Made by a program: the position numbers. Shown piece after piece: positions 25,801 to 30,936 of a DNA stretch of 64,000 bases. Location of the stretch: the NCBI RefSeq assembly GCF_988242995.1, contig NZ_OZ547043.1. One strand, written 5' to 3'. Position 1 is the first letter of the stretch. Each line of letters opens with the position of its first letter.

Positions 25801-28800
25801 TCAAAACGCTGGGGGCAGGGCGAGCGCAACTGCGTAAGCTAATCGTCGGTCAGTGGTTGATGGTGCTGGCGCTTTCAGCCGTTACCGGCGGGGCGATAGG
25901 CCTGTTGTTCGAAAACGTGTTGATGGTGCTGCTCAAGCCCGTTCTGCCTGCTGCACTACCGCCAGCCAGCCTCTGGCCGTGGCTGTGGGCGCTGGGCACC
26001 ATGACAGTCATCTCGCTGCTGGTGGGGCTACGACCGTACCGCTTGTTGCTGGCAACGCAGCCTTTACGCGTATTGCGTAATGATGTGGTCGCGAACGTCT
26101 GGCCGCTGAAGTTTTATCTGCCGATTGTCAGTGTGGTGGTTGTGCTGCTGCTCGCCGGATTAATGGGTGGCAGTATGCTGCTCTGGGCGGTGCTGGCGGG
26201 CGCGGTAGTGCTGGCTTTGCTGTGCGGTGTGCTGGGCTGGATGCTGCTGAATGTACTTCGCCGCATGACGCTGAAATCGCTACCTCTGCGCCTGGCGGTT
26301 AGCCGCCTGTTACGTCAGCCGTGGTCAACGTTAAGCCAGCTTTCGGCATTTTCGCTCTCCTTTATGCTGCTGGCGCTATTGCTGGTATTGCGTGGCGATC
26401 TGCTCGACCGCTGGCAACAGCAGCTACCGCCAGAAAGCCCGAACTACTTTTTAATCAACATCGCCACAGAACAGGTTACGCCGCTAAAAACGTTCCTCGC
26501 GGAACATCAGATAGTCCCGGAATCATTTTATCCGGTGGTGCGGGCGCGACTGACGGCGATTAACGACAAGCCGACAGAAGGCAATGAAGATGAGGCGCTT
26601 AACCGCGAACTCAATCTTACCTGGCAAAATACGCGGCCCGATCATAATCCGATTGTCGCCGGTAACTGGCCGCCAAAAGCCGATGAAGTGTCGATGGAAG
26701 AGGGGCTGGCGAAACGCTTAAACGTTGCCCTCGGCGATACCGTGACTTTTATGGGCGATACCCAGGAGTTCCGCGCTAAAGTGACCAGCCTGCGCAAAGT
26801 GGACTGGGAAAGTCTGCGGCCTAATTTCTATTTTATTTTCCCGGAAGGGGCATTAGACGGGCAACCGCAGAGCTGGCTTACCAGTTTCCGCTGGGAGAAT
26901 GGCAATGGCATGTTGACGCAACTCAACCGCCAGTTCCCGACCATTAGCCTGTTAGACATTGGCGCGATTTTAAAACAGGTCGGTCAGGTGCTGGAGCAGG
27001 TAAGTCGGGCGCTGGAGGTGATGGTGGTGCTGGTCACCGCCTGCGGTATGTTGCTGTTGCTGGCACAGGTGCAGGTGGGAATGCGTCAGCGTCATCAGGA
27101 GCTGGTGGTGTGGCGCACACTCGGTGCGGGGAAAAAACTGCTGCGCACCACGTTGTGGTGTGAGTTCGCCATGCTCGGGTTTGTTTCTGGCCTGGTGGCC
27201 GCAATTGGTGCGGAAACGGCGCTGGCAGTGTTGCAGGCGAAAGTGTTTGATTTCCCGTGGGAGCCAGACTGGCGATTGTGGATTGTTCTGCCGTGCAGCG
27301 GTGCGCTGCTGCTGTCGCTTTGCGGCGGCTGGCTGGGCGCGCGACTGGTTAAGGGTAAGGCGCTGTTCAGGCAGTTTGCGGGGTGATGTGATAAAGCCGT
27401 TTATTTCTACCTGGTAGATAAACGGCTTTATTATTAGTGCATCACGTAATTAAAAAATTGTTATGCCCAAACATATAATTAATATACATTGCCAAATGAG
27501 TTGTTTATTAAGTTTATATTATATAATTAAAATCTATGGAATGGGTATAATCATATGGGTGACATTATATATTTACGCATTACAGGGGAGCAACAAGGGG
27601 ATATTTCTGCAGGATGCGGGACGCAAGCCTCTGTCGGGAATCGGTATCAACAGGGACATGAAGATGAAATATTTGTTTTTAGTTTTCAGGGAGGAGTGAG
27701 TAATACAGGATTTGGCATTAATCATCAAGCGATACAATTTTGTAAAATTCTCGATAAAAGCTCACCGCTGCTGATGAATTGCATTAATAATAACGAACGA
27801 TGCCGTTTTGAGTTTGATTTTTATCGTATTAATAAATATGGGAAATGGGAAAGTTATTATTATATTGAAGTCCGCGGTGCAACGTTAACTCAGAATCAGA
27901 TTATAATAAAAGAAAATGAACTCGACTATCAATATATAACAATACACTACAAATATATCTACTGTAAGCATCTTACAGCCAATACAGAATTTAGTTATTT
28001 ACTCACACCTGAAAATTATAATCGCCTTTTCCCACCGACGCTCTTACCTGTTGAGGAAAAACCAGAAATACCGCCTGAACGAGAAATTATCCTCACCATT
28101 GGCGTATTCTTTGATGGCACAGGAAACAATTTAACCAATACGAATTTACGTATGAGTTTTTGCCAACCAGAAACCTATGGTCTGGATGTCCAGGATTTGG
28201 CCTCGTTTAATAAACAATGTATGAGCAAGCAGGGTAAAACGGGATCCGGAGTACAGAGCTATTTGAATTACTATACGAATATTCATTGGTTGAATGAGTT
28301 GTATCATCGGCAATTAGTTTTAGATGATGATGTATTTAATATTCAGGAAAAAATATATATTGAAGGTATTGGCACTGAAAATAATAAAGCAGACTCTCTG
28401 GTAGGAATGGGGCTAGGAAATAATGATACTGGGGTAATTGCCAAAACTGACCGTGCGATATCACTGCTTCGTGAGACACTGGCAGAGATTATTGTTGATT
28501 TAAAGGATGCTAAACTAGTAATTAAGCGTCTACAGTTTGACGTATTTGGCTTTAGTCGTGGGGCGGCAGCCGCACGGCACTTTACTAATCGCGTATTTGA
28601 ACGTGATCCCGTACTGATTAAAACCATTGCGACGGCATTTCAGTCAGTTGAATATTTAGGTAAACCTTCCGGGGAAGTGCAATTTTTAGGTATTTTTGAC
28701 ACAGTTGCAGCCATCGGAGGGCTGATGGATGGTTTTGACCCTCATGATGGTAATAACTTTCCGGTAAAAGTGAAGTTACCGCCAGGTGTGGCCAAACATG

Positions 28801-30936
28801 TATTCCAGCTCACAGCAATGAACGAATGTCGCTATAACTTTTGCCTCAACAGCATAAAGGAAAGCTGGCCAGAATTAAGTTTCCCTGGATCACATGCTGA
28901 TATTGGTGGCGGTTATGACCCACAGGAAGATGAGTACCTGTTTTTAAGTCGCCCGGCGATTGAAACGGTACTGGGAAATGTGCCGATGGAAGCGACAAGC
29001 GCTTACCAAAAAGCAGTACAGCAGGCAGAGTTATTGTGGCGCTATTCGACGCTGGCTCCGATTCTGCCTTCTGGTGTCCTAAAAATTGAATCCAATATTG
29101 ATGAAATAGCGTCGCCTGACCACTTAGGTAATGTGAGAAAACGGGTCGCTGCAGCGGTGACATTTCGCAGAACGATCACCAATGACTGGTCAAAGATTGC
29201 GTTAAGAGTAATGTATGAAGTCGCTAAAGAGGCAGGGGTAGTATTTGATGCCATTTCTGTTGCTGATAAGGAATTAAAAGTTCCCAGTCATTTAAAGGTA
29301 ATATGTGAAAAAGCAATTTCTCAGGGTAAAGCCGTTCTCTTGTGTACAGCGCCGATGCCTTTTTCTGATGATGAGCTTAAAACCATTGGGAAATATTTAC
29401 ACTGTTCTTCCAACTGGAATACCGTCGATTATCGATTAAAAAATAAGGTGTCTGCTGAAGTATCAGCGTTTAAGACGTTTAGTTTTGTTAATCGGCCGGA
29501 TGAAAATTGGACCAGAACTATATACGATATGCAAGGGAATAAACAAAATGGAATTTAATATAAAATTACTGTTTGTTATTACGTCTATGGTTCTTAACTT
29601 TAACGCAGCAGCGAAAGAAAAAATATTGTTGCTTGCACCCTATGATGAGTGGTATTTCAATTTTTTCTACCCTGATTCCCTACCAGCACAAGTTACCTAT
29701 GTGGAATTATTAGATACCGATGGCATCTATTATCAGTTCAGAACGCTGGCCAGTACCAATGCCAGTCCAGGAAGTGTTGGACAATGGAGCGAGAAAGTAT
29801 CAGGGATGTCGTCAGTTTTTAATAAAGCCAAAAACCCACCAATGTCTATCCATTTTTGCTGGGATTCAGTGATTGATAAAAAAGTGTATGAAACCTGGAT
29901 AACACTGGCGGGAGACGTCTGGAAATTGATGCTCACACCTTATTCACCACCAGGCGGTGGCAGTGAAAAGTATTATCTGCGGTATCTGTTAATCGGGCTG
30001 GCTCCGGAAGGAAAAGTACGGGTATGGCTTAATAAACGTGACAAACCCAATATTCGCCTGACGGATAAGCAGATTCTGATAGAAACGGTTTCAGGTGAAA
30101 AAATGGAAATGTGTAAAGGAATTTCCCGGCATGATTTTTCTCTTGGAGACGATGAATATGTTCTTGAGTTTATCAAAGATAAAAAATATCCCTATGGTAA
30201 CTGGTAAGTAACAATGAAAATAACAGCTAAAATAATTTATAGATTAACCATTGCGTTAATGATAGCCGGATCAGTCCAGACAGCAGCGAAAGAAAAAATA
30301 TCACTGCTTGCACCCTATGATGAATGGTATTTCCTTTTTTTCTACCCTAATGCGCTACCAGCACAAGTTACCTATGTAGAACTATTGGACACTGATGGTA
30401 TCTATTATCAGTTCAGAACGCTGGATGCTACCGCTCCGAGTTCCACTACTATTGGTCAGTGGAGAGATAATCTTCGGGTTGGGGTGTTATCATTCAATAA
30501 AGCCAAAAATCCCCCTATGTCTATCCATTTCTGCTGGGATTCAGTGATTGATAAAAAAGTGTATGAAACCTGGATAACGCTGGCGGGAGACGTCTGGAAA
30601 TTGATGCTCACACCTTATTCACCACCAGGCGGTGGCAGTGAAAAGTATTATCTGCGGTATCTGTTAATCGGTCTGGCTCCAGAAGGAAAAGTACGCGTAT
30701 GGCTGGAGAAACCTGACAAGCCCAATATTCGCCTGACGGATAAGCAGATTCTGATAGAAACGGTTTCAGGTGAAAAAATGGAAATGTGTAAAGGAATTTC
30801 CCGGCATGATTTTTCTCTTGGAGACGATGAATATGTACTTGAGTTTATCAAAGATAAAAAATATCCCTATGGCAACTGGTAGTTAACCAGTTGCACAATT
30901 TATTAAAGAGGAACGGAAAAGCATTTTTGTGGGTTA

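Follow-up and report, generated by a model that had tools for sequence, protein, structure and literature searches.

The 64,000-nucleotide stretch analyzed here, from contig NZ_OZ547043.1 of NCBI RefSeq assembly GCF_988242995.1 and referred to below as the window, carries a low-GC cassette between ybbP and mnmH/selU, in which a gene encoding an Hcp tube protein fused to a Tle1 lipase is followed by two tandem DUF2931 genes. We regard the cassette as very probably a horizontally acquired, three-gene toxin-immunity unit of the Hcp-ET2/ETI2 kind. Profile, sequence and fold evidence uphold the original prediction, made from the sequence of the window, that the fusion is a type VI secretion system (T6SS) toxin in which a Tle1/DUF2235 lipase is borne on Hcp. 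The prediction had also placed it in a class that is not new, which agrees with the literature. The name Hcp-ET, for Hcp proteins that bear a toxin at the C-terminus, comes from Ma et al. (2017, Virulence), and, according to two reviews, Hcp-ET2 of the enterotoxigenic Escherichia coli (ETEC) strain PE321 (A31K_02346) has a DUF2235 domain, Tle1 phospholipase activity, a role in T6SS-dependent interbacterial antagonism and an immunity protein, ETI2, that is a Tli1 homolog (PMC6730261, PMC6099711). DUF2235 is also among the known toxin domains of specialized Hcps (Howard et al., 2021). The Hcp-ET2/ETI2 class to which the cassette belongs is already known, with an experimentally characterized prototype and annotated members in hundreds of RefSeq genomes. 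The likeness to the PE321 pair (N-terminal Hcp, C-terminal DUF2235/Tle1, a downstream Tli1-like gene, a location in E. coli outside T6SS clusters) is one of architecture, as those reviews describe it, rather than of sequence, and the cassette differs in having two tandem immunity genes.

Domain architecture of the fusion and the DUF2931 genes

The fusion gene is a single intact open reading frame (ORF) of 667 amino acids (aa), and its product is one residue apart (D16N) from WP_096989918.1 of GF60, a chicken meat isolate that is the best match to the window (Table 1). At the N-terminus, the NCBIfam Hcp/TssD model TIGR03344 scores 125.2 bits over aa 1-149, where the curated cutoff is 58.9 (E = 2.3e-36; positions 1-163 of the 167 in the profile), and PF05638 (Pfam T6SS_HCP) matches aa 6-138 (E = 5.7e-13). 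We also searched an AlphaFold2 (AF2) model with Foldseek. Its N-terminal domain, where the predicted local distance difference test score (pLDDT) is mostly 70-90, adopts the Hcp β-barrel fold, superposing on the Hcp structures 6A2V and 3HE1 with a template modeling score, TM(target), of 0.85-0.92 and a root mean square deviation of 1.5-2.5 Å. The model was built on a 27-sequence alignment and has a mean pLDDT of 63, with residues 382-455 and 618-667 below 50; it served for coarse fold matching only, and the geometry between the domains was not drawn from it. All three lines of evidence agree with the Hcp fold that had been claimed for the N-terminus, and the module is predicted to be able to assemble into a hexamer or tube and to be secreted by a T6SS.

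The remainder of the protein aligns with the Tle1 phospholipase of enteroaggregative E. coli (EAEC; EC042_4534). A phmmer search of the Protein Data Bank (PDB) pairs aa 173-661 with residues 30-541 of the 560 in EAEC Tle1 (6sjl_D/6ski, a structure of the protein in complex with the VgrG spike; E = 1.4e-127), and Foldseek matches the model to 6SKI/6SJL over 470 columns (E = 8e-33). PF09994 (Tle1-like catalytic, formerly DUF2235) gives a partial match at aa 369-460 (E = 9.6e-11). The motifs GVFFDGTGNN (aa 183-192) and GFSRG (aa 332-336), the latter a GxSxG motif that makes Ser334 the nucleophile, lie exactly where the original prediction put them. The checks proposed with it, profile searches and structure prediction, bore it out at both ends of the protein: Hcp and DUF2235 profiles were both matched, and the model gives an Hcp fold N-terminally and a Tle1 fold C-terminally. 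One element of that prediction fell, namely that the protein ends in an extension of about 200 aa without a recognizable motif. This region (aa ~470-667) is covered by the alignment with the solved EAEC Tle1 structure, opposite residues ~335-541, and so is part of the EAEC-type Tle1 fold rather than a new module.

A closer look at the active site places Ser334, Asp382 and His447 opposite residues S197, D245 and H310 of the 6SJL chain, which we take to be the catalytic triad of Tle1-EAEC; the triad assignment was reportedly made by Flaugnatti et al. in 2016. The corresponding codons in the window are 28554-28556 (Ser334), 28698-28700 (Asp382) and 28893-28895 (His447). All three residues, together with the whole GFSRGAAAARHF block, are invariant in 27 homologs from about 10 genera, which span E. 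coli, Salmonella, Atlantibacter, Kluyvera, Enterobacter, Lelliottia, Cedecea and others. As judged from these alignments, the C-terminal 490 aa is a complete EAEC-type Tle1 phospholipase A, an α/β hydrolase with the triad Ser334-Asp382-His447. Tle1-EAEC is a phospholipase A1 and A2 (PLA1/PLA2) that acts in the periplasm (PMC9860674), and by analogy the fusion would be expected to have the same activities and to be toxic in the periplasm.

Tle1-EAEC and the fusion differ in how the lipase is carried. In EAEC, Tle1 is a stand-alone protein encoded within the Sci-1 T6SS-1 cluster, and its N-terminal β-strand docks on the TTR domain of VgrG by fold complementation (PMC10715212). Both Tle1-EAEC and the stand-alone homologs (522 aa) have an N-terminal segment of about 30 aa ahead of a conserved TLTIGVFFDGTGNN strand. 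Sequence comparison places the Hcp domain (aa 1-150) and a Pro-rich linker (aa 151-176) where this segment would be, while the lipase itself is homologous over its full length, with the same GxSxG motif, S/D/H triad and C-terminal region. The fusion is best read as a swap of delivery modules, in which Hcp and linker replace the VgrG-TTR docking strand and the same lipase would travel as a covalent tube subunit rather than as cargo of the spike.

The product name given by RefSeq/PGAP, "type VI secretion system tube protein TssD", suggests no more than a standard structural component of the tube, and TIGR03344 is indeed the only NCBIfam model that matches the fusion. The Hcp domain, however, occupies only the first 150 of 667 aa, the other 490 aa form a full Tle1 with an intact triad, and the gene lies away from sheath and baseplate genes and adjoins immunity genes. 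A purely structural role has practically no chance of being correct and is ruled out by the domain evidence. Among carriers of the gene, RefSeq uses the labels "tssD" or "Hcp family effector", along with "DUF2931 family protein" for the genes that follow. Under the tube-protein name, a phospholipase toxin of the pandemic sequence type 131 (ST131) lineage goes unnoticed.

Downstream of the toxin gene, the start codon of the first DUF2931 gene overlaps the toxin stop by 11 nt. This gene is annotated as DUF2931 in the GF60 RefSeq record, and the second matches PF11153 (DUF2931) at aa 28-201 (E = 5.2e-26); NCBIfam has no model that matches either, and a sequence search of the PDB with the DUF2931 protein returned nothing credible. 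The two are tandem duplicates, with 80% protein identity, 90% nucleotide identity over ~600 nt and an identical C-terminal ~130 aa. By inspection, both have predicted Sec/SPase-I signal peptides (…NFNAAA|KEK in the first, …SVQTAA|KEK in the second) and neither N-terminus has a lipobox Cys, so both proteins are predicted to be soluble in the periplasm. EAEC Tli1, the DUF2931 protein encoded directly downstream of tle1, is by contrast an outer-membrane lipoprotein; the compartment is the same, but the anchoring is different. From family membership, both genes would be expected to confer immunity. The number of DUF2931 genes per array varies: one in L1PEag1 (L013, 4478-5137), two in the window, GF60, MS1657 and Z247, and four in SE15 (L007, 6660-9344).

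The immunity genes also bear on the target of the toxin. In RAW264.7 macrophages, the PLA2 activity of purified Tle1-EAEC caused ~50% lysis (PMC9860674), and the extraintestinal pathogenic ST131 lineage has a disproportionate share of the cassettes, both as would be expected if the fusion were chiefly a host-directed, anti-eukaryotic effector rather than an antibacterial one. Against this, dedicated immunity proteins with signal peptides are encoded in close linkage to the toxin gene and in translational coupling with it, which is the hallmark of antibacterial toxins that act in the periplasm. The enrichment in ST131 may be mere clonality, and the cassette is also found in commensal and environmental isolates. 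We consider a chiefly anti-eukaryotic role very unlikely.

Table 1. Features of the cassette, with positions in the window.
Feature	Position	Strand	Evidence
Low-GC cassette replacing the K-12 rhsD element	27396..30954		K-12 alignment edges and GC content
hcp-tle1 fusion gene (Hcp-ET2 type), 667 aa, intact	27555..29558	+	ORF; profile and sequence matches
Hcp/TssD tube-protein domain, aa 1-150	27555..28004	+	TIGR03344, PF05638, Foldseek
Pro-rich linker, aa 151-176, ending ...TPENYNRLFPPTLLPVEEKPEIPPER	28005..28082	+	Sequence; AF2 pLDDT <50 at residues 161-173
Tle1-family phospholipase toxin (predicted), aa 177-667	28083..29558	+	phmmer and Foldseek matches to EAEC Tle1
Putative immunity gene 1, DUF2931 (Tli1/ETI2 family), 219 aa	29548..30207	+	GF60 annotation; 80% identity to gene 2
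Putative immunity gene 2, DUF2931 paralog, 222 aa	30214..30882	+	PF11153
Sigma-70-like promoter candidate, TTAAAA-18-TATAAT, 10/12, upstream of the toxin gene	27450..27479	+	Consensus scan
Terminator-like hairpin and T-run, end of the three-gene unit	30872..30894	+	Pattern match only

Chromosomal site, distribution and allelic variation

The cassette is a sharply bounded island of 3,559 bp. Its GC content of 39.6%, against 58% in the flank on the ybbP side and 52% in the other, bears out its earlier description as AT-rich, and homology to E. coli K-12 ends at 27395 and picks up again at 30955. The right edge falls inside mnmH/selU (30934-30954), where the final ~7 codons are island-derived; the protein has 368 aa here and 364 aa in K-12. 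Inspection by eye revealed neither flanking direct repeats nor att-like sites at the borders, where no dedicated repeat search was run. In K-12 MG1655 the same slot between ybbP and selU is filled by rhsD-ybbC-ylbH-ybbD-ylbI-ylbG, so that rhsD had been named correctly for this site and the island occupies its exact position. Both are polymorphic toxin/immunity elements, but they belong to unrelated families: the K-12 element is of the Rhs/YD-repeat type with ybbC-type immunity and measures ~7.3 kb, against 3.56 kb here. A PADLOC search of the cassette gave zero matches, so it is not a known phage-defense system.

A search of 5,426 complete E. coli genomes located the toxin gene in 573, and in 569 of these the full ybbP-mnmH cassette reaches ≥80% query coverage. 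Copies of the cassette lie at the same ybbP-mnmH site; most carriers are ST131-like, and many are O25b:H4-ST131. Since about a tenth of complete E. coli genomes have the same cassette at the same spot, it is ordinary for the species. In the best match, GF60, the cassette is 99.7% identical to that of the window, whereas identity falls to 92-99.6% over the remaining sequence. A blastn search in "distant" mode with the tle1 part found only the 573 cassette copies and no EAEC-type tle1 inside T6SS-1 clusters, and a protein search by word index, for which the Hcp domain was the sole query, retrieved nothing beyond fragments from this family, canonical Hcps being absent.

Beyond E. coli, more than 100 full-length fusions of Hcp to PF09994, each of ~660 aa, occur across the Enterobacteriaceae, and wherever the context of these fusions was examined a DUF2931 gene follows. 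In Enterobacter hormaechei, the cassette consists of the fusion and one DUF2931 gene, is an orphan and adjoins suhB. Salmonella enterica subsp. houtenae has a 61%-identical fusion and a DUF2931 gene at the same ybbP-selU junction (L016, 8451-13769); this cassette is preceded by an unannotated 377-aa gene without a Pfam match. Because the homologs in E. hormaechei and S. houtenae are also orphans, an orphan location is the norm for Hcp-Tle1 fusions. The original prediction had stressed that there are no T6SS core genes nearby. The absence itself stands: no vgrG, PAAR or T6SS core or structural gene is annotated across the collinear 64 kb in GF60, the closest genome. What does not stand is its unusualness, since the relatives are orphans and most E. 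coli carriers have a T6SS-1 elsewhere in the genome (564 of 573; see below). With rhsD in K-12, the Hcp-Tle1 cassette in other E. coli and the 61%-identical cassette in S. houtenae, the ybbP-selU slot appears to act as a hotspot for cassettes of polymorphic toxins across genera.

Selection differs between the two halves of the fusion. The ratio of nonsynonymous to synonymous substitution rates (dN/dS) is 0.11-0.13 in the Hcp module, which is under strong purifying selection, versus 0.64-0.70 in the toxin part. Toxin alleles are mosaic, with swapped patches at aa 252-266 (28308-28352) and 566-611 (29250-29387) in a gene that is otherwise more than 99% identical; three variants of the first patch and two of the second occur among 11 genomes. 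This pattern suggests that discrete toxin patches are replaced by recombination. The immunity proteins are also mosaic, at aa ~71-92 and ~193-209, with two or three alternative patches at these positions and a copy number of 1-4. Variable patches in toxin and immunity proteins alike fit a polymorphic toxin pair.

Whether the two sets of patches correspond was followed across the same 11 genomes. A strict rule, in which the C-terminal patch of the first immunity gene always matches toxin patch 252-266, held in 4 of 4 genomes and was then broken by Z247 and FDAARGOS_144, and we rejected it. A weaker rule survives: all five carriers of a type-1 toxin have at least one "KGIS" immunity gene, and all six carriers of a type-2 or type-3 toxin have at least one "NGRS" gene. 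In this small and clonal sample, the pairing of patches is suggestive of allele-specific immunity.

Secretion systems in carrier genomes and the proposed delivery of the fusion

In the mechanism we propose, the Hcp module would enter, or cap, the Hcp tube of a T6SS whose genes lie at another place in the genome. Contraction of the sheath would then expel the fusion into a neighboring Gram-negative cell, where the lipase would hydrolyze membrane phospholipids from the periplasmic side. The DUF2931 proteins, exported by Sec to the periplasm of the producer, would neutralize incoming or leaked toxin, as Tli1 does Tle1. Delivery by a T6SS encoded elsewhere is inferred from co-occurrence, which was computed as follows. 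T6SS clusters were found by synteny at aspV and metV, and genomes were counted by inclusion-exclusion from composite megablast queries. The T6SS-1 tssC gene is present in 1,342 genomes and its union with the cassette comprises 1,351, so that 564 of the 573 carriers have both; for T6SS-2 tssC, which occurs in 551 genomes and forms a union of 1,108 with the cassette, the overlap is 16 of 573. At most 8 carriers may be without both systems. The association of the cassette with T6SS-1 is confounded by the clonality of ST131.

Two carriers show the contrast between backgrounds. GF60 has a near-complete T6SS-2 at aspV, ~340 kb away (tssA-C, E-H, J-M and two hcp genes), and T6SS-1 tssC is absent. SE15, of the ST131 lineage and with four DUF2931 genes in its cassette, has all 13 T6SS-1 core genes at metV, and its aspV site is empty. 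In the SE15 T6SS-1 cluster, ISEc12, a member of the IS21 family, divides a hypothetical gene that lies between vgrG and tssM (L006, 14717-18517), roughly where T6SS-1 clusters usually carry a lipase effector. If ISEc12 did strike the lipase-effector position, the orphan Hcp-Tle1 could be the remaining lipase of this lineage.

The Hcp module was also compared with the Hcps of both systems. Its identity is 35% (E = 2e-30) with the 159-aa Hcp whose gene ends the T6SS-2 cluster, 29% with the T6SS-2 Hcp of 172 aa, and 25% (E = 3e-8) with that of T6SS-1.

Several points weigh against delivery of an active toxin as proposed. The function of this particular allele is read from its sequence. With only 35% and 25% identity to the T6SS-2 and T6SS-1 Hcps, the module does not single out the apparatus that would accept it. 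The presence of a T6SS rests on relatives that carry the cassette, the closest of which, GF60, diverges from the window outside the cassette to the extent given above, and the vgrG in the GF60 T6SS-2 cluster is annotated as a truncated pseudogene. Some alleles of the cassette are pseudogenes, including one divergent allele: strain 382634_2f (L011, 3485-6809) has a frameshift and an internal stop in the toxin gene and a frameshift in one immunity gene, in SCU-124 (L021, 3749-4409) the first immunity gene is a pseudogene beside an intact toxin gene, and in H68 the toxin gene is interrupted by IS1. Finally, the lumen of an Hcp tube is ~4 nm wide, which a folded lipase of ~55 kDa should not fit; this poses a problem of loading geometry.

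A comparison with other Hcp-ET proteins sharpens this last problem. Hcp-ET1 (HNH-DNase) and Hcp-ET3/4 (pyocin S3/colicin DNase) likewise have a toxin on the C-terminus of Hcp, orphan loci and tandem immunity duplicates (three copies for Hcp-ET3-4), but their toxins are small nucleases that act in the cytoplasm, unlike the ~55-kDa, periplasm-acting lipase predicted here. The cassette poses two questions: how a ~55-kDa lipase on Hcp is loaded, and which type of T6SS loads it.

One answer would be that no T6SS does. The cassette may be functionally orphaned, with no compatible T6SS, and kept mainly because the DUF2931 genes protect their host from Hcp-ET2/Tle1 attack by neighbors. The low identity of the Hcp module to the core Hcps of T6SS-1 and T6SS-2 in carriers (25-35%), the 1-4 immunity copies with mixed patch types, as expected of immunity collections, and the toxin pseudogenes beside an intact immunity gene, together with the IS1 insertion in H68, are all in keeping with such a role. 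The toxin ORF is nevertheless intact in the window and in nearly all 573 carriers, the Hcp module is held at the low dN/dS given above with an invariant triad in the lipase, T6SS-1 is present in nearly all carriers, and the prototype is reported to be delivered by a T6SS. On this evidence we think a functionally orphaned cassette unlikely.

Within the reading of the cassette as a T6SS-delivered toxin-immunity unit, we put forward two further ideas, which we offer tentatively and jointly and think doubtful as a pair, though by no means negligible. The first is that the fusion is a promiscuous tube subunit taken up by two evolutionarily distinct T6SSs, or else dead weight in one of the two backgrounds. 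This is proposed because the Hcp module is nearer to the T6SS-2 Hcp, yet 98% of carriers have T6SS-1, the aspV site of SE15 is empty and GF60 has T6SS-2 only. The second is that the alternative C-terminal patches KGISRHDFSLGDDEYVLE and NGRSAYKHGYSYPESTKN of the 1-4 tandem DUF2931 genes would act as antidotes specific for particular alleles of the toxin patch at aa 252-266.

Other features of the window

The promoter candidate upstream of the toxin gene (Table 1) is a pattern match only, and the region has fewer such matches than expected from shuffled sequence.

Elsewhere, an IS3-family insertion sequence with two overlapping transposase ORFs (176 and 240 aa; minus strand) lies at 52090-53565, between the carbamate kinase gene ybcF and purK, and is absent from the otherwise collinear GF60. 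The start of the window (12-15943) is taken up by the 3′ 12.6 kb of a giant, repetitive adhesin gene with Ig-like domains, which extends beyond the beginning of the window (more than 4,197 aa here, against 20.6 kb for the gene in GF60) and is followed by genes for a type I secretion ABC permease/ATPase (12609-14771) and an HlyD adaptor (14768-15943). The first 5 kb of the adhesin gene is only 92.6% identical to GF60, and its internal repeats are ~72-75% identical. A YadA-like adhesin ORF of 338 aa (17027-18043, minus strand) is found in a short segment with only ~81% identity to GF60, a genome in which partial adhesin fragments are annotated in this region.

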